A stretch of 26,521 bases of DNA from a virus (IMGVR_UViG_2875722834_000004); one strand, 5' to 3'. Positions 1,659 to 23,216 are shown, counted from the stretch's first letter. A program made the numbers and translations. The notes: generated from the sequence alone by a model not told the origin.

Positions 1659-4130
1659 TTAAGAATCAGCCTGACTCGGGATCAGTTTTTGCCAGATAAC
1701 TGAAACGTATTTTGCCTGGTAACGGGCGTCATCAAGTGCATTATGGCGCTCACCTTCGAATGGAATAGCCGTTCTGGCATCGAAGTCTATGGCTTTCCCC
1801 AGCTCAACGATTGTGCGTACATCGCGATCGTTGTAGTAACGCCACGGGCAGGGGATCCCCTGCCGTTCGTATGAACGGCGCAAAATCGTGTTGTCGAAGT
1901 TGGCTCCATTTCCCCAAACCTGAACAAAAAATTCACCGGAGTTTTCGTCGATAAATTCTCGCAATTGTAACAGTGCATCATCTAACGGGATTTCATCGGT
2001 CATAATGGCAGATTGCGCTTCGCGTGATTGCTTAAGCCACCATTTAATGGTGTCCCGATCAATGACTCCGCCAGCAGTTTCCAGATCGATAGTCTTACTA
2101 AATTCCGGTCCCATATCTCCGGTTTGCGGATCGAAAAATATTGCACCTATTGAGATGATCGGGGCATCAGGATTTTTTCCCATGGTTTCAAGGTCGATCA
2201 TTAGATGGTCACACGTCCTGCTGGTGGATGTGATTTCGTGATGACCGTTCACCTTAATTGGGTGATCTGCCGTCTCGCCAGTTTCATTATCGCTATTGTG
2301 ATGCTGATTGCCGCCAGTGATCTCCTTGTGTGGATGTTCAGCGCCTTCCATTTCCTCCGGATCATCTTCCTGAACTTCAACCTGATACTCTTCATCGAAT
2401 GTTTCTTGGTATGTTGCGTCGCCCATCACCGCGCCACAATCAGGGCAGTTGCCGCCGCCGGTCTGACCGCAGGCGGTGCAGACTTTTTCCACTTCCTGTT
2501 GCGCTACTGGTTCAGGCTGTTTCGTTTCTGGCTCGTTTTGTAACGCATTTGGACTGTTTTGTTCCGCTTTTTGGTAGTTCCGTTCCGATTCATGCTGGTT
2601 CTGGTTCACAGAATCGCGGGTCTGGAGCCCCTTAACCCATTTCGGATCATTCGGGTCACTAATCCCTTCAACAAATTCACCACGTGATGCAGCAAGCAAC
2701 TTATCGGCGTCAGGCTGGCTGATATTGGCTGCCTGCATAATTTTGTTTACTTCGTCAGCGGTAACTTTTATCGGCTCTGGTTGTTCTGAATCTTCAGCGG
2801 TATCTACATTTTGCGGTAAGCCCGTGTATGTGCCATTTTTTCGGGCAAAATATTCTTCTTTTGTGATTTCAGTGGCGCCAGCAGCCAGTGCCTTATCCAG
2901 ACCAGAGAGTTTGTTTGCGCGACCGTATTTTTCTCCGTCCTTATCTGCGAAGAGGAAATAGAACGGCCCCTCACGCTCTACAGATGGTTCAGCTTCCGGC
3001 GCGGTTTCATTTTTTGGGATATCAGATACCTCAGTTTCCACTGCATCAGTTTGTGTTTCTGATGACTGGAGAACATCAACAGTGCCCAGGTCTGTTTCTT
3101 CATTCTCAAACACGCCCTTTGTCGTCAGGTATTCGCAGATATATTTGTTCAGTGCTACGGGATCTTTGTGAATGTCGATCGGACGCTCACGGACAAGGCC
3201 AAAAATAGTTTGGCGGTCGTAGCGAAGGGCATCAGGCTGTTTGCGCATTGATGCCGAGATACGCTTCCAGTCTTCGCGGTCGTTGTCGATAACTTCTTTT
3301 TTTGCCCAGCGATGGATGCTGCCGTCAATGTTTCCGGCATCCACATCACTAGGCCAGAGAGCGTAGGCCAGTTCGTCATCCAGTGTTTTCCATGTCTGCT
3401 TGTATTCGCGATGAATGGCAGCAATGACCGGGCTGATTTTTCCTGTTGAATTTTCAGTGTACTGTTGATTGGCTCTGGCGCGGGCGAGATCAACAACAGA
3501 CGTGTATTTTCCGGTTTCCTTGCGTTCACCTTCGCGACGTTTTTTCCAGATGCGCATCTCTGCCTGAATTTCGGGCCATTTAGCACCAGGAATACATTTA
3601 TGCTTAACCCACCCAATGGCGTGCAACTTAAGCTCCGGATACATGGCGTTAACTTCTGGCATTTTCATCAACGCTTCAACGATATGTCCGTCGAATGTTG
3701 CCATGTCTTCCTGCAACAATTCCTGTGCGCTAATAACCATATCAACGGTGATGTTTTCACATGTGTCGAACTTAACCATGACAGCGTTCTGTACTTCAGG
3801 GGCCAGCTTGTCAAAAGTGACGTTCATCGGATCGGATTCAGTCTCAACCGGGACAAAAGAAGCAGACTCCTCATCCCAGCGGTTTTCCTGCATATATTCA
3901 GCATCCCATGAATCGAGGGCAGGGCGGGGTATGCCAGGTTTATCCTCGCAGACAATAAATTTATAAGCGCAGTCCTGAGCAGCCGGATAATGTTCCAGGA
4001 ATTGCCAGTGAAATTTTGCTCGAGCACGGCGTTCGTCGCCAGCTTCAATGGCTGTGGCTACAGCCACAGCGCCTTCTTCCCTTGTTGCCAGTTCGTCAGG
4101 AATAGCGGCGCAAATAAAGACTTTACTCAT
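1659..4130 (-). CDS. Large early-left protein with C-terminal DEDDh (DnaQ-like) 3'-5' exonuclease domain; full-length counterpart of the ydfE position in Qin
   Basis: ORF open to 4166; likely start at MSKVF (4130). C-terminal ~180 aa carry Exo I/II/III-like motifs (MIDLETMG; WGNGANFDNTIL; HNALDDARYQAKY). A CxxC...CPDC zinc-ribbon-like motif and acidic low-complexity stretches lie upstream. Located between ydfD and xis/int. Confidence 0.75.
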   Translation of the reverse strand: MSKVFICAAIPDELATREEGAVAVATAIEAGDERRARAKFHWQFLEHYPAAQDCAYKFIVCEDKPGIPRPALDSWDAEYMQENRWDEESASFVPVETESDPMNVTFDKLAPEVQNAVMVKFDTCENITVDMVISAQELLQEDMATFDGHIVEALMKMPEVNAMYPELKLHAIGWVKHKCIPGAKWPEIQAEMRIWKKRREGERKETGKYTSVVDLARARANQQYTENSTGKISPVIAAIHREYKQTWKTLDDELAYALWPSDVDAGNIDGSIHRWAKKEVIDNDREDWKRISASMRKQPDALRYDRQTIFGLVRERPIDIHKDPVALNKYICEYLTTKGVFENEETDLGTVDVLQSSETQTDAVETEVSDIPKNETAPEAEPSVEREGPFYFLFADKDGEKYGRANKLSGLDKALAAGATEITKEEYFARKNGTYTGLPQNVDTAEDSEQPEPIKVTADEVNKIMQAANISQPDADKLLAASRGEFVEGISDPNDPKWVKGLQTRDSVNQNQHESERNYQKAEQNSPNALQNEPETKQPEPVAQQEVEKVCTACGQTGGGNCPDCGAVMGDATYQETFDEEYQVEVQEDDPEEMEGAEHPHKEITGGNQHHNSDNETGETADHPIKVNGHHEITSTSRTCDHLMIDLETMGKNPDAPIISIGAIFFDPQTGDMGPEFSKTIDLETAGGVIDRDTIKWWLKQSREAQSAIMTDEIPLDDALLQLREFIDENSGEFFVQVWGNGANFDNTILRRSYERQGIPCPWRYYNDRDVRTIVELGKAIDFDARTAIPFEGERHNALDDARYQAKYVSVIWQKLIPSQADS

Positions 4131-4222
4131 TTGTTTTAACCTCATGACAGATTTAAGGATGAACAAATCCCTGCCATTGCTGGCATATAAGAATGAAACC
4201 GGATATTTATTACGGAACTGTT

Positions 4223-4414
4223 TTAAAGACCTGCCGGGATTTCGATATTATCCTGGTGAATAACTTTATCGACCGGGTAACAGTTACCGGGAATTTTCTG
4301 TTCGGTTGCTGCAGTCATACACTCCTGCATTGTCCTGTGAACACTGACTGCAATATCAACTGGCTCTCCGGAAACAAGAAAAACTGTCAGAACAAGCACA
4401 AATGCTGAATTCAT
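4223..4414 (-). CDS. ydfD: YdfD-like small lysis-associated protein (63 aa, N-terminal hydrophobic segment)
   Basis: Recalled match to K-12 YdfD starting MNSAFVLVLTVFLVSGEPVD; start overlaps the dicB stop (ATGA-type overlap). The six-frame ORF extends upstream to 4468 but that part overlaps dicB. Confidence 0.75.
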   Translation of the reverse strand: MNSAFVLVLTVFLVSGEPVDIAVSVHRTMQECMTAATEQKIPGNCYPVDKVIHQDNIEIPAGL

Positions 4415-4599
4415 TGTGCACATCCTTTTGGCATCAGACGTAAACGAGCCAGCATTGAAACAATGCATATTTTATTTAATAGCTCCCGTTCTTGTTTTCT
4501 CTTGTTAATGGCATCTTCAGTAAATACTGGGTTACTGATAGTGACACCAATTTCAAAACAACCTTCAGACGTATTAACGTTTGGTAATAACGTTTTCAT
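4411..4599 (-). CDS. dicB: Cell-division inhibitor DicB (62 aa)
   Basis: Protein MKTLLPNVNTSEGCFEIGVTISNPVFTEDAINKRKQERELLNKICIVSMLARLRLMPKGCAQ matches my recollection of E. coli DicB; followed by ydfD as in Qin. Confidence 0.85.
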   Translation of the reverse strand: MKTLLPNVNTSEGCFEIGVTISNPVFTEDAINKRKQERELLNKICIVSMLARLRLMPKGCAQ

Positions 4600-4694
4600 T
4601 ATCGCGTCCTCAACAATGAATTTTGTGATGCAGTGCCTGGTGCCTCCAGGTGACGTTAACCAGTTAACAATTAACGCCGGATAGCAGGGAGGAT

Positions 4695-5036
4695 TTGGCG
4701 TGTGCGCAGTGGATCTGGGGGCGGATCGTGGGTCTCTACGAACAGGCAGCCAGTGATGATGGCGAGATCATGCGACCAAAAGAGCCTAACTGGACTGCCT
4801 GGGCCAATGACGTGCGCACAATGCGGATGCTGGATGGCAGAAGCCACAGACAAATTTGCGAAATGTTTGGTCGGGTTCAGCGAGATCCATTCTGGGTAAA
4901 AAACATCATGAGCCCGTCAAAGCTCCGCGAAAAATGGGACGAACTGGTCATCCGCCTGGGACGTTCACCTGTACAGCGTTGTGTTAATCATATTTCTGAA
5001 CCGGATACAGAAATTCCGCCTGGTTTCAGAGGATAA
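4695..5036 (+). CDS. Hypothetical protein, possibly an N-terminally truncated remnant
   Basis: 113-codon open frame, but the only start near the AGGGAGG Shine-Dalgarno (4686-4692) is a TTG 2 nt away; in-frame GTG at 4728 and ATG at 4770 are alternatives. No family recognised. Confidence 0.35.
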   Translation: MACAQWIWGRIVGLYEQAASDDGEIMRPKEPNWTAWANDVRTMRMLDGRSHRQICEMFGRVQRDPFWVKNIMSPSKLREKWDELVIRLGRSPVQRCVNHISEPDTEIPPGFRG

Positions 5037-5076
5037 GTGTTGATTTCAGGTCATGAGGTAATTTTAAGGGGGACTT

Positions 5077-5499
5077 GTGGCAAAAGTTTTTACACAAGAG
5101 GAGCGGGAAAAAATTAAATGGCAGGTGGTGGAACTCGTGCGCCAGAGCGGCCGTGAGACGTTACGGCAACTGGAAGCTAAAACAGGTGCGACTAGATATC
5201 TGATGAGCGTTCTTGCCAGAGAGCTGGTAGCCAGTGGCGATGTATACAACTCCGGCTACGGGTTATTCCCCTCTGAACAGGCGCGTAAGGACTGGCAAAA
5301 CGCCCGCAAAAAACTCTCGAGGGCAAAGGTGAAGAAACCTGCTGTGGTTGATCCGGACCTTATCTGGTCATCACCTGACGGAGAAATACGTCGCTACGAC
5401 AGTCGCCTAAACATAATCTGTCGCGAGTGCCGGAAGAGCGAAGTTATGCAGCGCATACTGGCTTTCTATCAGGGTAATTTTCAGGACGTGGCGCAGTGA
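5077..5499 (+). CDS. Hypothetical protein (140 aa)
   Basis: GTG start preceded by a strong SD (AAGGGGGA, 5066-5072); stop overlaps the start of the next gene (GTGAGTG). Protein is basic with a central helix-rich region; no family recognised. Confidence 0.6.
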   Translation: MAKVFTQEEREKIKWQVVELVRQSGRETLRQLEAKTGATRYLMSVLARELVASGDVYNSGYGLFPSEQARKDWQNARKKLSRAKVKKPAVVDPDLIWSSPDGEIRRYDSRLNIICRECRKSEVMQRILAFYQGNFQDVAQ

Positions 5500-5942
5500 G
5501 TGCACCGGCAACCATTCTTGATATGTGCTGTGGCAGCCGCATGTTCTGGTTCGATAAGTCTGACGAACGGGCGATATTCAGCGATATCAGAAAAGAAGGA
5601 TACACATTACGCAATGGGAGACGCTTGATTATCAGCCCTGACATTATCGCAGATTTTCGTGCATTATCATTTGCAGACGCATCTTTTTCGATGGTTGTAT
5701 TAGACCCTCCGCATCTTGAGAGTGTTGGTGATAACGCCTGGATGGGAAAGAAATATGGACGGCTGAATAAAGATGCCTGGCGTGATGATTCGCGACAGAG
5801 ATTTAAAGAAGCCTTTCGGGTGTTGAGGCCGCACGGCGTTCTGATTTTTTAATGGAATGAAACGCAAATACCGGTAAGCCAGATTCTGGCACTGACAGAC
5901 AGAAAACCTGTTATCTGTCAACGAACAGGGAAAAAACGATAA
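5496..5942 (+). pseudogene. Phage Dam-like N6-adenine DNA methyltransferase interrupted by an in-frame TAA at 5850-5852
   Basis: 118-aa ORF contains a DPPH motif (variant of the DPPY/F motif IV of N6-adenine methyltransferases). The same frame stays open for 30 more codons after the TAA (…HGVLIF*WNETQIPVSQILALTDRKPVICQRTGKKR*). A single substitution (AAA to TAA) would explain the stop. Confidence 0.55.
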
Positions 5943-6114
5943 AACCCACTGGATTATTTTTATGAAAGAGGCATCCAGTGAGTAGATTCGTAAGGCTACA
6001 GATACGTATATCTGAATAATTAAATTCAGTTCTGTAAATAAAATTTAATCCTTAACCGGATGGATTTCTGCACCCTCAGAACATCAGGAGGCCGCCCGAA
6101 AGGGCGGTAGTGAA

Positions 6115-6225
6115 ATGCGAAAGTTCAAAATTATTATTGAAACGGGAATAGCTGGTGGAGATTTTGAGGATGTATTCGAAGTGGACGATGACGCAACACC
6201 TGAGGAAATTCATGACGGAGCATAA
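6115..6225 (+). CDS. Short acidic ORF (36 codons), possibly the 5' part of a decayed gene
   Basis: ATG at 6115; ends at TAA 6223-6225; frame reopens for 23 more codons to TGA 6295-6297. Preceded by a CCGCCC-GAAA-GGGCGG hairpin (6092-6107). Confidence 0.2.
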   Translation: MRKFKIIIETGIAGGDFEDVFEVDDDATPEEIHDGA

Positions 6226-6274
6226 GAAATTTTCTTTAACTACTGCAATTACTCATACCACGAAATAAAAGACG

Positions 6275-6466
6275 ATGAGGAAGAACAAAGTGGCTGATTT
6301 TTGTTCAGCTAAATATAACATCAGTTTTGAAGAGCGGGATGAACTATTAATGGACTATGGTGAGTTACGCGGTGGAAGTGCTGCTGATGTCGAATCCTAG
6401 CGTGATGACTATGAAGCGGGAAAAACTCCGGTCGAAGCATATTGTGATGAGTGGGGCGATGAATGA
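6275..6466 (+). pseudogene. Short ORF with internal in-frame TAG (6398-6400); possible decayed phage gene
   Basis: ATG 6275; 41 codons, TAG, then 21 codons ending …YCDEWGDE with the stop overlapping the next ATG (ATGA). Confidence 0.25.
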
Positions 6467-6750
6467 GCGAGATTAATTATCAGGAAGGGCATGAAACGGC
6501 GGGGCAAGCAAAACCAGTGGCATGGCGATATCGCTACGTGAAAAAAGGCGTTACGGACTTTCAGGGGAAGTAGTGGTCTGGTGACTGGAAATATGTACCG
6601 AAAAAAGAGGATTGTAACGACAGGCCGAACTATCAAATTCAGGCCTTATTCACTGCCTCACCAGTCCCAGTTACATCAGAAGAACTGGTTAAAGCTGTGC
6701 ACTTTTATGAACAACTAAAACGCGAAAATCCACCAACATCCGGCAACTAG
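6463..6750 (+). pseudogene. ORF with internal in-frame TAG (6571-6573); possible decayed phage gene (~95 codons)
   Basis: MSEINYQEGHETAGQAKPVAWRYRYVKKGVTDFQGK*WSGDWKYVPKKEDCNDRPNYQIQALFTASPVPVTSEELVKAVHFYEQLKRENPPTSGN*; 59 codons stay open after the TAG, which is unlikely by chance. Confidence 0.3.
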
Positions 6751-7004
6751 ATTAATGGATTAACTATGTCGGTTAAACGACCAGCCAACTGAAAAAGCGG
6801 AAACCTGATTACAGGTTGCCAGATAAGGCAATGAGCTACCTGGCGCGGAACGGACTGATAAGTATGGGGAATGTTTTACGATGAACCTTTAGACTAAAGA
6901 GTTTGTAACGCTATGTAAGTGATTTTTTCTGGTTTAGATATTTATATGTCCGGCCAAATTGAGGTGTGTTTAAATGTAATTGCACATTGATTGTAGGAGG
7001 AATA

Positions 7005-7184
7005 ATGAAAAACGCATTGCAGTTTTTGTTTGTTGCGTTCTGGTTGTTCGCATCATGTATGCCCATCATCTTCACAGCAAGGTATATGGAAAAAGTTGAT
7101 GTTTTGATATTAATATTTGGATATATAAATGCCCTTTTTTTAGGGGTGTTCATGGCGGTCATGTGCATTGAATACTGGCGGTAA
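7005..7184 (+). CDS. Small hydrophobic protein (59 aa, two predicted transmembrane segments)
   Basis: ATG 7 nt downstream of a consensus AGGAGG (6995-7000); protein MKNALQFLFVAFWLFASCMPIIFTARYMEKVDVLILIFGYINALFLGVFMAVMCIEYWR; lies in an AT-rich islet. Confidence 0.5.
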   Translation: MKNALQFLFVAFWLFASCMPIIFTARYMEKVDVLILIFGYINALFLGVFMAVMCIEYWR

Positions 7185-7439
7185 ATACAGCGAACTCCAT
7201 TGGTTTAGTTGGATATTTACTGTGCTGGACAAAAACGGTTTGCGGGGAAATCTTAGTTAAGTAGAATGACTGCGGGTGCTTGAGGCTATCTGCCTCGGGC
7301 ATGGACACCAACGGCAGATAGAGAAAAGCCCCAGTTAACATTACGCGTCCTGCAAGACGCTTAACATTAATCTGAGGCCAATTTCATGCTAGACACATGT
7401 AGGTTAGCCTCTTACGTGCCGAAAGGCACGGAGAAGCAG

Positions 7440-8900
7440 GCTATTGTTAACACCAAGCTGTAATGTCCCCTTTGAACCATTCTAAAATGTCCCCAGACAA
7501 TTCTCTGGGGGATTTTTCATGATCAAAGAGACTGTTACGATGAGTCATAAGGAACTCCACCGACTTCAGATTATTCAGGAACAAGCTGCGGCACGCATTG
7601 GCATTTCTATTCGGCAGGTTAAACGTCTGGTGCAACGGTATAGAAATGAAGGGCCTTCTGGTCTGGTTTCCCACCGACGTGGAAAGCGTCCTAATAATTC
7701 CTTTTCTACTGAATTCAGAGCAACAGTAATTTCACTCCTCAAAGGCCGTTACGCTGATTTTGGACCTACGTTTGCGTGCGAAAAATTGCGCGAGATACAC
7801 GGTTTATCTTTATCCGTTGAAACTCTCAGAAAGTGGATGATAGAAGAGGGGTTATGGCGTGAACGCCGTCGTAAAATTGCCCGTATATATCAACGCCGCA
7901 TGCGACGACCATCTTACGGTGAACTGATCCAGATTGATGGCTCACCTCATGACTGGTTTGAAAATCGAGGCCCCAGATGTACACTGATCGTTTTCATTGA
8001 TGATGCCACCAGTGCGTTGATGGCGTTGCGTTTTGTGCCTGCTGAAACAACCCGGGCTTACATGGAAACCCTCCGGGGTTACCTTAATGATCATGGCGTA
8101 CCGCTCGCTCTCTACTCTGATAGACACAGTATATTCAGGGTAAATAACCCAGAGCGGGAAGGTGAGCTGACCCAGTTCACTCGTGCGATAAAGACACTGG
8201 GCATCGAGCCAATCCATGCCAACAGCCCGCAGGCAAAAGGGCGGGTAGAGCGCGCCAATCAGACACTACAGGACAGGCTGGTCAAAGAAATGCGGCTTCA
8301 GAATATCAGTGATATTGAAACAGCAAATGCATGGTTGCCGACCTTTATTGAAGCCTATAACAACCGGTTCGCTACGTCGCCTCGTACTACTGATAATGCT
8401 CATCTTGATGTGCACCATTCTGAAGAGGAACTGGGTTATATCTTCAGCCTACAGGCGAAGCGCGTTCTGTCTAAAAATCTCACTTTCCAGTACAAAAGCA
8501 GTGCGTTTCAGGTACGCAGTGAGGGCCGGGGATATCGACTTAGGCATTCGGTTGTTACTGTATGCGAGAACTTTGACGGTGAAATTAACGTTCTGTATGA
8601 CGGGAAAGCGCTGGGCTGGGAAAAGTATGTTGATGGCCCGGAGCCTATACCACTGGATGATGAAAAGAGTGTCCATGAACGAGTGGATAATGCCCGTATT
8701 GATTTACGCTCAAAATACTATGTTAAACCTAAAGCTGACCATCCCTGGCTTACGCGCCGAACGCAAAGTCATCAGCAAGTTAAGCCCCCGAAGTTACCTA
8801 AAAAGAAGCCTGATCCCGATAAAAAAGATTGAAACCAAGATCGATTCGGTTGAGTGCATATCCATTCATAGGGTAGATTCTTAAGTCGCGTTTCTGGTGT
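7440..8900 (+). mobile_element. Putative insertion sequence carrying the 437-aa transposase (ends not defined)
   Basis: Single transposase ORF replacing the segment where Qin carries dicA/dicC/ydfABC; a hairpin (CCCCAGA...TCTGGGG, 7489-7507) sequesters the GGGGGA SD-like sequence before the ATG. I could not identify terminal inverted repeats or a target duplication by eye. Confidence 0.3.
7519..8832 (+). CDS. DDE transposase/integrase (rve core), IS481/ISNCY-like, 437 aa
   Basis: N-terminal HTH-like region, then DDE triad candidates (IQIDGSPHDW, YSDRHS, SPQAKGRVERANQTLQ). Confidence 0.8.
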   Translation: MIKETVTMSHKELHRLQIIQEQAAARIGISIRQVKRLVQRYRNEGPSGLVSHRRGKRPNNSFSTEFRATVISLLKGRYADFGPTFACEKLREIHGLSLSVETLRKWMIEEGLWRERRRKIARIYQRRMRRPSYGELIQIDGSPHDWFENRGPRCTLIVFIDDATSALMALRFVPAETTRAYMETLRGYLNDHGVPLALYSDRHSIFRVNNPEREGELTQFTRAIKTLGIEPIHANSPQAKGRVERANQTLQDRLVKEMRLQNISDIETANAWLPTFIEAYNNRFATSPRTTDNAHLDVHHSEEELGYIFSLQAKRVLSKNLTFQYKSSAFQVRSEGRGYRLRHSVVTVCENFDGEINVLYDGKALGWEKYVDGPEPIPLDDEKSVHERVDNARIDLRSKYYVKPKADHPWLTRRTQSHQQVKPPKLPKKKPDPDKKD

Positions 8901-10133: not shown

Positions 10134-10373
10134 ATGGGTAGCATTAACCTGCGTATTGACGATGAACTTAAAGCGCGTTCTTACGCCGCGCTTGAAAAAA
10201 TGGGTGTAACTCCTTCTGAAGCGCTTCGTCTCATGCTCGAGTATATCGCTGACAATGAACGCTTGCCGTTCAAACAGACACTCCTGAGTGATGAAGATGC
10301 TGAACTTGTGGAGATAGTGAAAGAACGGCTTCGTAATCCTAAGCCAGTACGTGTGACGCTGGATGAACTCTGA
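10134..10373 (+). CDS. relB: RelB antitoxin (79 aa)
   Basis: MGSINLRIDDELKARSYA...PKPVRVTLDEL matches E. coli RelB; stop overlaps the relE start (TGATG). Confidence 0.9.
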   Translation: MGSINLRIDDELKARSYAALEKMGVTPSEALRLMLEYIADNERLPFKQTLLSDEDAELVEIVKERLRNPKPVRVTLDEL

Positions 10374-10498
10374 TGGCGTATTTTCTGGATTTTGACGAGC
10401 GGGCACTAAAGGAATGGCGAAAGCTGGGCTCGACGGTACGTGAACAGTTGAAAAAGAAGCTGGTTGAAGTACTTGAGTCACCCCGGATTCGAGGTTAA
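10373..10498 (+). pseudogene. relE: Truncated relE toxin gene (first ~39 codons, then unrelated sequence and a stop)
   Basis: MAYFLDFDERALKEWRKLGSTVREQLKKKLVEVLESPRI matches the RelE N-terminus; the frame then reads RG and stops, lacking the RelE C-terminal catalytic half. Confidence 0.8.
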
Positions 10499-13058: not shown

Positions 13059-13358
13059 AAAAATTCCTTAATACTGATAACTTGGCGCACTATACACACG
13101 TTCCTGAAGAAAGCTATAGTTTTTTGATGGGGTTGAAGATGGCTGGATGTCTAAAATAAACATTGCTTCATATGTTCAACTATGCGTTAATGATTGCGTC
13201 GGTTTGAAGAACAGACGATATACGAAGTAGTTTACTAAAGCAGTTCTCATTTCAGGTGTTATTCACTTATTCCTTCTTTGAGTCTCTCCAATTAAGTACG
13301 AAGTCGTTTCTGTTATGCAAACCATTTATGCCGAAAGGCTCAAGTTAAGGAATGTAGA

Positions 13359-13574
13359 ATGTCAAATAAAATGACTGGTTTAGTAAAATGGTTTAACGCT
13401 GATAAAGGTTTCGGCTTTATTTCTCCTGTTGATGGTAGTAAAGATGTGTTTGTGCATTTTTCTGCGATTCAGAATGATAATTATCGAACCTTATTTGAAG
13501 GTCAAAAGGTTACCTTCTCTATAGAGAGTGGTGCTAAAGGTCCTGCAGCAGCAAATGTCATCATTACTGATTAA
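13359..13574 (+). CDS. cspB: Cold-shock protein CspB-like (71 aa)
   Basis: [38 protein letters not shown]... with RNP1/RNP2 motifs; AGGAAT SD; long upstream leader. Confidence 0.85.
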
Positions 13575-13855
13575 AATTCATCGCTCGTCTGTATACGATA
13601 ACGAAGAAGGCTGATGCCTGAGTAGAGATACGGACAGAGTAGTGAATATTGGATCTCTTTAATAAAAAGTAAGGAGGTCCAATACATGAAACAATGGCTA
13701 GCATATTTGGCAAAATCTTAATCAGGAAAAGTATGCTAACCATTGTGGTGAAGTGCAGGTTTGCTGCATGAATAGTTTTACAGCAGAAGCTAACTGCTGG
13801 CATGGCAAAACAAAGTGCGTAAGTGGATGACTCCCACAAAAAGCACCACAATCTC

Positions 13856-14859: not shown

Positions 14860-15048
14860 ACACAAAAATCAGATACGGCCTGTCGGCTGCCGTTCTGGCG
14901 CTGATTGGTGCTGGCGCATCTGCTCCTCAGATACTTGACCAGTTTCTGGACGAAAAAGAAGGTAACCACACAATGGCATACCGCGATGGTTCTGTGAACC
15001 GCCCCGGGAATCCTGGAGACTAAACTTCCTGAGAAAGAGGTAAACAGG

Positions 15049-15375
15049 ATGACTAAAAATACTCGTTTTTCCCCCGAAGTCCGTCAACGGGCAGTCCGTA
15101 TGGTTCTGGAAAGTCAGAGCGAATATGACTCACAATGGGCGACAATTTGTTCCATTGCTCCAAAGATTGGCTGTACGCCGGAGACTCTGCGTGTCTGGGT
15201 TCGCCAGCATGAGCGGGATACCGGGGGCGGTGATGGAGGGCTCACCACCGCTGAACGTCAGCGTCTGAAAGAGCTGGAACGTGAAAATCGTGAACTGCGC
15301 CGCAGTAACGATATCCTTCGCCAGGCTTCCGCTTATTTTGCGAAGGCGGAGTTCGACCGCCTCTGGAAAAAATGA
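15049..15375 (+). CDS. IS629 OrfA (transposase N-terminal/HTH protein), 108 aa
   Basis: [23 protein letters not shown]...; leucine-zipper-like C-terminus; overlaps orfB in the -1 frame. Confidence 0.9.
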
Positions 15376-16262
15376 TGCCACTGCTGGATAAGCTGCGTGA
15401 GCAGTACGGGGTCGGACCGCTATGCAGCGAACTGCATATTGCCCCGTCAACGTATTACCACTGTCAGCAACAGCGACATCATCCGGATAAACGCAGTGCC
15501 CGTGCGCAGCGCGATGACTGGCTGAAGAAAGAGATACAGCGCGTATACGATGAAAATCACAAGGTATACGGTGTGCGTAAAGTCTGGCGTCAGTTGTTAC
15601 GGGAAGGTATCAGAGTGGCCAGATGCACTGTGGCACGTCTCATGGCGGTTATGGGACTTGCCGGTGTTCTCCGGGGTAAAAAGGTCCGTACGACCATCAG
15701 CCGGAAAGCCGTTGCCGCAGGCGACCGCGTAAACCGTCAGTTCGTGGCAGAACGACCTGACCAGCTGTGGGTGGCTGATTTTACTTACGTCAGCACATGG
15801 CGGGGCTTCGTCTATGTGGCGTTCATCATTGATGTGTTTGCCGGATACATCGTGGGGTGGCGGGTCTCATCGTCCATGGAAACGACATTCGTGCTGGATG
15901 CACTGGAGCAGGCGTTATGGGCCCGTCGACCGTCCGGCACGGTCCATCACAGTGATAAAGGTTCTCAGTATGTATCGCTGGCCTACACACAGCGGCTTAA
16001 GGAAGCCGGATTACTGGCATCAACAGGAAGTACAGGCGACTCGTATGACAACGCGATGGCGGAGAGCATCAATGGTCTTTACAAAGCGGAGGTAATACAC
16101 CGTAAGAGCTGGAAAAACCGTGCAGAAGTGGAACTGGCCACACTCACGTGGGTGGACTGGTATAACAATCGACGATTGCTGGAAAGGCTGGGCCATACTC
16201 CTCCGGCAGAAGCAGAAAAAGCTTATTATGCTTCCATCGGAAACGATGATCTGGCAGCCTGA
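15372..16262 (+). CDS. IS629 OrfB (DDE transposase catalytic domain), 296 aa
   Basis: rve-type DDE domain (WVADFTYV...[10 protein letters not shown]...[13 protein letters not shown]); -1 frame relative to orfA, consistent with IS3-family OrfAB frameshifting. Confidence 0.9.
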
Positions 16263-16662
16263 GTTCACAGATAAAACACTCTCCAGGAAACCCGGGGCGG
16301 TTCACTGGCATATGGACCATCTGTCGGGGTGCCACAGTGGTGGATGGAAAAACCGTTTTTCCCAATATGAAACTGTCGAAGGAAAAATGCGACCAGGTCA
16401 ACGCCATTGAGCGTGATAAGGCGCTGGCATGGGTGGAGCGCAATATTAAAGTACCACTGACCGAACCACAAAAAGCGGGTATCGCGTCATTTTGTCCCTA
16501 TAACATTGGCCCCGGTAAGTGTTTCCCGTCGACGTTTTATAAGCGGCTGAATGCTGGTGATCGTAAAGGTGCATGCGAAGCGATTCGCTGGTGGATTAAG
16601 GATGGCGGACGCGATTGCCGCATTCGTTCAAATAACTGTTACGGTCAGGTTATTCGTCGTGA

Positions 16663-17196
<534 letters not shown>

Positions 17197-17558
17197 GGTA
17201 ATATTAAATCGGAACATTTACATCGCGGAATGTAAAATTTAAATAAAAAGGACTCTTCCATGAGCCAAAATTCCTGAAATCTTAAGGGTAAGATAAAAGG
17301 TCTTAATCAGAATGACACGTTTTATTAATAAATAAAGCTATTCTTTCATTGCTGTGTTTTTCTTTACAAAAGTAATCCTTGCTATGGGTGGTTAATCATG
17401 CGTTAATGGTGTTCTGGTTTGTTACAAATTTATCTGAAGCAGTCATTGTTATAATTTTATTATTTGTACCTCTTGAGATTTCCTTGTTGGTTTTTCTCTC
17501 TGATATTTTTTTTCGGACCATTCTGCCCAAGGGCTAATTTCTTCAAAAGGTAATAATT

Positions 17559-17771
17559 ATGTCTAACAAAATGACTGGTTTAGTGAAATGGTTTAACCCT
17601 GAAAAAGGTTTTGGTTTCATCACGCCGAAAGATGGCAGCAAAGATGTGTTTGTCCATTTCTCAGCAATTCAGAGCAACGATTTCAAAACATTAACTGAGA
17701 ATCAGGAAGTTGAATTTGGTATTGAGAACGGACCTAAAGGTCCTGCCGCTGTTCATGTAGTGGCGCTTTGA
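17559..17771 (+). CDS. cspI: Cold-shock protein CspI-like (70 aa)
   Basis: [70 protein letters not shown]. Confidence 0.9.
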
Positions 17772-17781
17772 GGTAGACAAT

Positions 17782-17970
17782 ATTACAAACCATATTCACT
17801 TTAGATGCCCGTGTTGTCATGGTTCCCAGTATAGAACATCATCTTTTGATGTTTCTGACATGAATCCTTTCGGGGCAAAATGTATCTTTTGTAAATCAAT
17901 GATGATTACATTTGATAATATTTCACAATACTTAAATGCCAGCCGTCTGTCGTTGGATTTAAAAAAGTGA
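17782..17970 (+). CDS. ynfN: YnfN-like zinc-ribbon ORF (CPCCHG...CIFCK) with no canonical start codon in frame
   Basis: Open frame ...HFRCPCCHGSQYRTSSFDVSDMNPFGAKCIFCKSMMITFDNISQYLNASRLSLDLKK*; the only in-frame ATG (17860) lies after the first CxxC pair. Possible ATT start at 17782 seven nt after a GAGGT; followed by a terminator. Gene-symbol assignment is by position and motif only. Confidence 0.3.
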   Translation: MTNHIHFRCPCCHGSQYRTSSFDVSDMNPFGAKCIFCKSMMITFDNISQYLNASRLSLDLKK

Positions 17971-22641: not shown

Positions 22642-23216
22642 TGGCATTCAGAATGAGTGAACAACCACGGACCATAAAAATTTATAATCTGCTGGCCGGA
22701 ACTAATGAATTTATTGGTGAAGGTGATGCATATATTCCGCCTCATACAGGTCTGCCAGCAAACAGTACCGATATTGCACCGCCAGATATTCCGGCTGGCT
22801 TCGTGGCTGTTTTCAACAGTGATGAGTCATCGTGGCATCTCGTTGAAGATCATCGGGGTAAAACGGTTTATGACGTGGCTTCCGGCGACGCGTTATTTAT
22901 TTCTGAACTCGGTCCGTTACCGGAAAATGTTACCTGGTTATCGCCGGAAGGGGAGTTTCAGAAGTGGAACGGCACAGCCTGGGTGAAGGATACGGAAGCA
23001 GAAAAACTGTTCCGGATCCGGGAGGCGGAAGAAACAAAAAACAACCTGATGCAGGTAGCCAGTGAGCATATTGCGCCGCTTCAGGATGCTGCAGATCTGG
23101 AAATTGCAACGGAGGAAGAAATCTCGTTGCTGGAAGCATGGAAAAAGTATCGGGTATTGCTGAACCGTGTTGATACGTCAACTGCACAGGATATTGAATG
23201 GCCAGCACTGCCGTAG
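22641..23216 (+). CDS. Tail fibre assembly protein (Tfa), 191 aa
   Basis: Size and position directly downstream of stf (TAATG overlap); resembles lambda Tfa. Confidence 0.8.

Follow-up and report, generated by a model that had tools for sequence, protein, structure and literature searches.

A single 3.0-kb deletion joins the dicB leader to a remnant of replication gene O in a Qin-type prophage

Results

The dicB–ydfD locus and its rightward neighbours

The window, by which we mean the whole stretch of 26,521 nucleotides analysed here (IMGVR_UViG_2875722834_000004), is a Qin-type cryptic lambdoid prophage adjoining rspB. If an additional 1310-bp IS in the window is set aside, its identity to E. 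coli HH107 is 99.97%. On the minus strand, dicB (4599–4411) encodes the cell-division inhibitor in 62 intact codons and gives a full-length Pfam DicB match (E 1.9e-40), and ydfD (4414–4223; 63 codons plus stop) matches Pfam DUF1482 and is labelled ydfD in the near-identical HH107. Both proteins are identical to those of K-12 (62/62 and 63/63 residues, respectively), ydfD shares 4 nt with the end of dicB as it does in K-12, and neither gene carries a disabling mutation, which bears out the original prediction that an intact dicB–ydfD pair lies on the leftward strand. An 81-aa ORF called here is only an in-frame upstream extension. A scan of species-representative genomes yielded further copies in Escherichia only, all of them canonical. 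Contig L326, labelled as a Veillonella parvula MAG, also bears the leader and dicB in an exact copy, which is probably E. coli prophage DNA placed there by misbinning or contamination.

The plus strand to the right of dicB opens with a pseudogene of the phage replication initiator, the 3' remnant of gene O (4683–5036; codons 205–321 plus stop). The translation of 4683–5033 is identical at 117/117 positions to residues 205–321 of the 321-aa O protein of the intact phage PhiR42_1, and the remnant matches phrog_391 ('replication initiation O-like') at positions 187–298 of 298 only. The N-terminal origin-binding part of O is not encoded, so that O here falls short of full length, and PGAP annotated the remnant in HH107 as 'incomplete, missing N-terminus'. 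A TTG at 4695, considered as a gene start, is just the first start-like codon in the O-remnant frame. Next come lygF (5077–5499, plus strand), which encodes a DUF977 protein of the Ren-like exclusion family (Pfam E 5e-29; phrog_142 E 1.6e-47), and a short ORF of 118 aa (5496–5852, plus strand) for a class I SAM-dependent methyltransferase, with weak Pfam methyltransferase matches and the same annotation in HH107 and PhiR42_1. The gene order O–lygF–methyltransferase is found in PhiR42_1 too. The region upstream of dicB had been described as a 96-bp divergent region; it is not intergenic DNA between divergent promoters, as the O remnant begins at 4683.

The dicF–ydfABC–dicA–dicC control module is absent

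Searches with Rfam RF00039 revealed no DicF match in 4100–5600 even at E<=10, and none at the gathering score across the whole window; as a positive control, the same search scored K-12 dicF at 76.7 bits. The K-12 dicC..dicF segment gave no blastn match in the window. Likewise, tblastn with K-12 DicA, DicC, YdfA/B/C and YdfX found nothing significant in all 26.5 kb, and with DicA/DicC of K-12 and PhiR42_1 and CI/Cro of Tritos it returned chance-level matches only (E>0.05) over the whole window. For dicBp and the promoter-proximal ydfABC, neither blastn nor tblastn gave a match in the window, and the PGAP annotation of the near-identical HH107 prophage contains no repressor. We further searched for the DicA operator Oc, a 20-bp inverted repeat of the pattern TTGTTAG-N6-CTAACAA (PMC3441716). 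Allowing up to 3 mismatches, there were 0 matches in the window with 1.3 expected by chance, and the control search on K-12 recovered Oc exactly together with one site in the dicBp region.

The absence of the dicF/ydfABC/dicA/dicC module, as well as that of a repressor gene nearby, was thus confirmed by the negative Rfam, blastn and tblastn results. Two findings named beforehand as contrary to this view, a dicF homolog upstream of dicB and a DicA/Cro-type repressor at ORF 4695 or 5077, were not encountered: the ORF at 4695 is the O C-terminus, as its 117/117 identity and the phrog_391 match attest, and the ORF at 5077 encodes a DUF977/Ren-like protein, the usual downstream neighbour of O.

The regulatory circuit is also depleted elsewhere in the prophage. 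Rem, the DicA antirepressor, and HokD are missing from the window and relE is shortened: relB is intact, relE is cut after codon 39 (10134–10489), and hokD and rem, which follow relE in PhiR42_1, are absent, which indicates a second internal deletion of the prophage. These losses fit a general decay of the regulatory circuit.

A collinear deletion of about 3.0 kb accounts for the arrangement

A similarity search against E. coli genomes and phages divided the region into two blocks, of which 4200–4687 matches ydfD–dicB regions and 4679–5900 matches 'replication protein O - LygF - methyltransferase' regions. The junction was located at 4682–4683 by comparing the window with K-12, PhiR42_1 and Tritos. 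On the left, 4560–4683 is 100% identical to the sequence upstream of dicB in K-12 and PhiR42_1; on the right, 4679/4682–4800 is 99–100% identical to the interior of PhiR42_1 gene O. At the junction the two parents overlap in TA only, a microhomology at 4682/4683 that stands in GGATA in the spacer and in GGGTA in gene O. In intact relatives the order is ydfD–dicB–DicF–ydfC–ydfB–ydfA–cI/dicA–cro/dicC–cII–O–lygF–methyltransferase. The flanks of the window junction are collinear with intact PhiR42_1, with about 3.0 kb missing and nothing inserted. The missing segment comprises the distal 90 nt of the dicF–dicB spacer, dicF, ydfCBA, dicBp with the DicA operators, dicA and dicC, as well as cII/ydfX and O codons 1–204. 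These comparisons show that the dicB-proximal 84 nt of the spacer came to adjoin O codon 205 through a single simple deletion, about 3.0 kb long. The exact junction occurs in 4/5426 complete E. coli genomes; HH107, KL53 and CFSAN051542 are among the strains that carry the allele.

Conserved leader blocks do adjoin differing upstream or downstream sequences in different prophages, as would be expected if the arrangement were a native mosaic module junction created by recombination between phages rather than by deletion within one prophage. Here, however, the right partner is an internal, N-terminally truncated piece of O whose orientation and position relative to lygF and the methyltransferase gene are the normal ones, and both flanks follow one intact phage, PhiR42_1, across a 3.0-kb gap with no insertion, which makes a mosaic origin extremely improbable.

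The TTAAC repeats and the palindrome are ordinary parts of the dicB leader

The stretch left of the junction (4600–4683, minus strand) is the retained dicB-proximal 84 nt of the 174-nt dicF–dicB spacer, that is, the dicB leader, and carries the Shine–Dalgarno sequence GAGGA of dicB at 4607–4611. It contains two sequence motifs. The predicted palindrome CCTGG-TGCCT-CCAGG was confirmed by direct reading at 4636–4650 (minus strand) and would form, as RNA, a 5-bp hairpin with a 5-nt loop. Three TTAAC motifs are also present as predicted, at 4656, 4664 and 4671, with a spacing of 8 and then 7 bp and not of 8 bp throughout; they lie in a quasi-palindrome (4652–4678, minus strand) whose RNA would form a 10-bp hairpin (GGCGUUAAUU / GGUUAACGUC) with a 7-nt loop. 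The triple TTAAC pattern occurs once in the window and in 0/100 shuffles. However, 4600–4683 is identical to K-12 at 84/84 positions (L005 3026–3109), and the same 84 bp stand upstream of dicB in intact phages that have dicA and dicBp. Since K-12 and these intact phages have this sequence at an unchanged distance from dicB, the motifs replace nothing, contrary to the idea of a substitute for the K-12 module. Palindrome and repeats alike belong to the ordinary dicB leader and recur unaltered in K-12.

The original prediction regarded the motifs as an operator-like element and proposed that control of dicB must differ from the DicA paradigm, for instance through a repressor acting in trans from another prophage. 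A statistically unusual motif, and one TTGTTAAC stretch similar to one half-site, TTGTTAG, of the DicA operator (PMC3441716), would suit a DNA operator of this kind. Yet the element is shared with K-12 and with intact phages that retain dicA and dicBp, no full operator matches at <=3 mismatches, and no promoter is present for an operator to act upon; where the operon is intact, the promoter is about 1.1 kb upstream of the element, which belongs to the transcribed spacer and folds as RNA hairpins. The supposed operator is the 84/84 K-12 leader, contains no DicA operator and ends at the deletion junction with the O fragment. A DicA supplied in trans by another prophage would find no operator left to bind. 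An alternative-control operator, with or without a repressor in trans, is therefore highly improbable, and this part of the prediction is largely refuted; the locus is read most simply as a joint loss of promoter and repressor.

The dicF–dicB spacer is predicted to form a structured RNA domain

The intact K-12 dicF–dicB spacer folded better than its shuffles (z = -4.87). In the predicted fold, a multi-branch domain is closed by a long-range helix of about 21 bp, which pairs sequence just after the dicF terminator with sequence just before the dicB ribosome-binding site and encloses the 10-bp TTAAC hairpin and the 5-bp CCTGG/CCAGG hairpin. A 14-nt inverted match between the helix strand at 4615–4635 and the distal spacer was also seen by blastn. 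A consensus fold of 20 natural variants kept the architecture with 45 pairs. Among these variants there were several one-sided G-U/G-C/A-U changes compatible with pairing and no two-sided ones, and both hairpins were invariant in pairing; a natural G-to-A variant turns a G-U pair of the TTAAC hairpin into A-U. Since the palindrome hairpin is invariant in the 20 variants, its covariation is uninformative either way. The palindrome hairpin was predicted in single-sequence and consensus folds, and the TTAAC hairpin in all folds. It is plausible from these models that intact prophages form a spacer RNA domain with the two hairpins. By the K-12 fold and the 20-variant consensus, 4615–4635 (minus strand) would be the orphaned 3' strand of the ~21-bp helix, its 5' partner having been deleted, and the two motifs of the window would be the hairpins of a truncated structured domain.

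The K-12 spacer (L005 2933–3142) aligned over its full length with Rfam STnc100 (RF02076; 34.4 bits, E 1e-5), and the window copy (4636–4686) aligned with model positions 91–140 only (17.4 bits). Membership in STnc100 was rejected, both scores lying below the gathering score of 47. Like the STnc100/PasD prophage sRNAs, the K-12 spacer has an outer helix and inner hairpins. Unlike it, STnc100 copies as described lie in late regions, for example downstream of stx2, and not between dicF and dicB, and the window has the 3' half only. The dicF–dicB spacer and STnc100 may be distantly related structured RNA modules. At six further loci (L093, L089, L102, L219, L295 and L304) the same spacer block follows a DicF-like sRNA of different sequence and precedes genes other than dicB; as it stands there next to an sRNA and without dicB, the block travels with the sRNA terminator and not with dicB.

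dicB is most likely a silent, promoterless relic

In the intact operon, the DicA-repressed dicBp is the major promoter, deletion of dicA derepresses it 22-fold, and no evidence for an internal promoter was found (bioRxiv 10.1101/2023.04.14.536235). As cited in the same preprint, Cam et al. (1988) suggested a second promoter upstream of dicB; should it fall within the 84 nt kept here, transcription of dicB would still be possible. In our sigma-70 consensus scan, a crude one that reaches sigma-70 promoters only, promoter-like sites in 4100–7600 were no commoner than in shuffles, and the minus strand had none over roughly the first 1 kb upstream of dicB. Two terminator-like hairpins on the minus strand (4956–4938 and 4925–4910) lie inside the O remnant. 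Read-through from the right arm, as suggested in the original prediction, might still feed dicB but found no positive support.

Because repressor and repressed promoter were lost together, the loss of the otherwise indispensable DicA would be tolerated. Different deletions in GF31, AHB21 and MB06234 also remove dicA along with dicBp. With dicBp and the repressor gone, dicB–ydfD, followed by exonuclease–xis–int, would be left without a native promoter and would be silent or expressed only from spurious antisense transcription. Ordinary prophage decay, leaving a deletion scar, a leftover dicB leader and a silent dicB without promoter, is very probably the explanation of the locus, and dicB is most likely a promoterless, largely silent relic.

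The 100% conservation of DicB and YdfD without a disabling mutation would also fit continued use. On that basis the deletion might be adaptive: with the dicF terminator and the 5' strand of the helix gone, weak constitutive dicB expression from read-through or antisense transcription could confer phage resistance via MinC/ManYZ without lethal filamentation. DicB expression does protect against lambda-like phages (PMC6832061), dicB and ydfD are perfectly intact, and many independent deletions keep exactly the leader plus dicB. Against this, no promoter candidate was found, terminator-like hairpins stand upstream on the minus strand, and some lineages destroy dicB by IS3 insertion or IS-adjacent deletion; moreover, selection for expression alone cannot explain an endpoint fixed to one nucleotide, and the perfect identity may just reflect a recent deletion, the window being 99.97% identical to HH107. 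We consider an adaptive deletion unlikely and retain decay as the preferred reading.

As to the lineages with a damaged dicB, Res13 strains carry an IS3 element inside dicB (L320, Res13-Lact-ER02-39). In PSJ-12 (L321), a shorter O remnant directly adjoins what is left of dicB, its 3' part from the point of IS3 insertion through the stop codon; an IS-adjacent deletion would be expected to leave such a fusion.

The deletion endpoint in the dicB leader is reused

In IMG/VR prophage contigs and E. coli genomes, at least 13 distinct junctions share the breakpoint of the window to the nucleotide (L008, L009, L012, L014, L019, L038, L070, L074, L080, L110, L183, L189 and L199). Their partners are the ydfA leader, dicC, three cII sites, O (the window), lygF, the methyltransferase gene, two ydfU-like sites, the tail-fibre region and a DnaC-like gene, with one complex junction (L110). 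In the sense strand, with a slash at the break, the shared endpoint reads ...TA/TCCG(G/A)CGTTAATTGTTAAC (window 4680–4684); the window allele reads ...TA/TCCGGCGTTAATTGTTAAC (4682–4683), also given as ...TA/TCCGRCGTTAATTG. The deletions sharing this endpoint range from 1.0 to about 16.5 kb; all are collinear, run in one direction and keep dicB. A collinearity scan of 87 distinct upstream regions identified 12 deletion alleles, 7 of which end at -84/-85 from the dicB ATG, a proportion that is biased because the loci were partly picked with patterns anchored at the endpoint. The same endpoint clustering was seen in a DicB-selected set. No deletions of the reciprocal kind, with dicB lost and the distal spacer retained, were found.

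TA is present at every junction sharing the endpoint, and 7/8 mappable partners match the hotspot at 4/5 positions of GGNTA (plus strand; P about 1.6e-5). The base of the TTAAC quasi-palindrome stops 3 nt short of this endpoint, which also marks the limit of a block kept invariant in prophages that are mosaic elsewhere and adjoins a hypervariable, indel-rich stretch. Several candidate causes were rejected. A deletion via the longest direct repeat (10-bp CTGTATCCGG, window 5002–5011, reverse complement, versus the hotspot) was not found in IMG/VR. DNA hairpin stability is weak at about -8 to -9.7 kcal/mol (z -1 to -2.2). Judged by eye against the consensus, the hotspot partially resembles a Pin/Hin-type half-site (TTCTCTGTATCC); the crossover position does not fit a Pin/Hin-type recombination site.

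The recurrent endpoint looks like a one-sided deletion hotspot. Tentatively, and with doubts that outweigh our confidence, we propose that 4682–4683 is a self-preserving, one-directional deletion hotspot of Qin-type prophages that works by template switching past the quasi-palindrome. Once the TTAAC quasi-palindrome has been copied, a rightward-growing plus-strand 3' end (...CCGGATA-3') would form, either by a replication stall with a nascent-strand hairpin or by a site-specific nick, and would repeatedly switch template forward to GGNTA-like sites 1–16.5 kb away. Each event would strip dicF and the immunity region and spare the hairpin, the leader and dicB, so that the site could fire again. 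A site-specific nick, or added selection for keeping dicB, is also possible as the source of the recurrence.

A second reused breakpoint, CCGGATA/GCC in cII/ydfX, recurs in four distinct deletions, namely those of AHB21 and of the L014 type plus a pair of larger ones. This breakpoint lies at about 5166–5175 of PhiR42_1 (L002), equal to 8048–8057 in dicB sense, is represented by loci L004, L009 and L014, and has the CCGGATA heptamer in common with the dicB-leader hotspot in inverted orientation. The O site GGGGTAGCAGG (window 4684–4700; L003 4519–4540 in GF31) is likewise the right end of two deletions, that of the window and that of GF31, in which the ydfA leader is its partner. That leader (TACCCCAGCGTTAA) is similar to the one of dicB (TATCCGGCGTTAA); given this likeness and the common O site, the window allele may have arisen in two steps.

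Other features of the window

The extra IS in the window is a 1310-bp IS3-family element (14995–16304) with terminal inverted repeats TGAACCGCCCCGGG, absent from the HH107 locus. It contains an Rfam ALIL frameshift pseudoknot at 15330–15446 and presumably resembles IS629/IS1203. A sok antitoxin RNA match (7274–7445, 104 bits) implies a hok/sok-type module and adjoins a 437-aa ORF for an ISNCY (IS1202/ISEsa1-like) transposase (7519–8832), both sitting between the methyltransferase remnant and ydfW/flxA. Two cspA-type thermoregulator leaders stand upstream of the prophage cold-shock genes cspB and cspI, and an IS009 RNA-family match falls in the terminase/tail remnant region (13198–13590, 17413–17798 and 22984–23182 for the leaders and the IS009 match together).

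Discussion

The feature is an already known element, the Qin-type dicB leader with dicB–ydfD, cut short by a microhomology deletion of the ordinary kind. The locus illustrates how an otherwise indispensable repressor can be shed by a lysogen, the repressed promoter going in the same event. Two readings of the locus are corrected: the ORF at 4695 is an O remnant and not a regulator, and the TTAAC repeats and the palindrome are hairpins of an RNA leader and not an operator. The only part that deserves follow-up is the recurrent single-nucleotide endpoint. If a defined mechanism does underlie it, the locus would offer a natural, sequence-defined case of directional deletion formation, and the hotspot would drive the domestication of a widespread E. 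coli prophage and conserve the host-active dicB.

The dicBF/dicA–dicC region of K-12 Qin belongs to the same prophage family at the rspB side, with identical DicB, YdfD and 84-nt leader, and with flxA, ydfV, relB, ydfU, ydfT and cspB/F/I in the same order in the right arm. The two prophages differ in what they have lost: K-12 Qin keeps dicC, dicA, dicBp, ydfABC, dicF and the full spacer and lost O, lygF, int and xis, whereas the window prophage keeps int, xis, the exonuclease gene, the O remnant and lygF and lost the whole control module and dicF. The intact Qin-like temperate phages PhiR42_1, Tritos and mEp460_ev081 are collinear on both sides of the junction at 99–100% identity and carry the missing 3.0 kb, with DicF, ydfCBA, cI/dicA, cro/dicC, cII and the 5' part of O. 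Compared with the early-left region of lambda (PL/OL, cI, kil), these intact relatives have dicB at the position of host-killing genes such as kil and, as in lambda, transcribe it from a PL-like promoter repressed by a cI-like protein. In the window both the PL analogue and the repressor are deleted, and this logic is void at the locus. The deletion itself resembles short-homology illegitimate recombination and palindrome hotspots in its 2–5 nt of microhomology and in an endpoint 3 nt outside a quasi-palindrome. Classical microhomology deletions, however, vary at both ends, whereas here one end is fixed in at least 13 independent events, all in one direction, with the longest direct repeat (10 bp) left unused.
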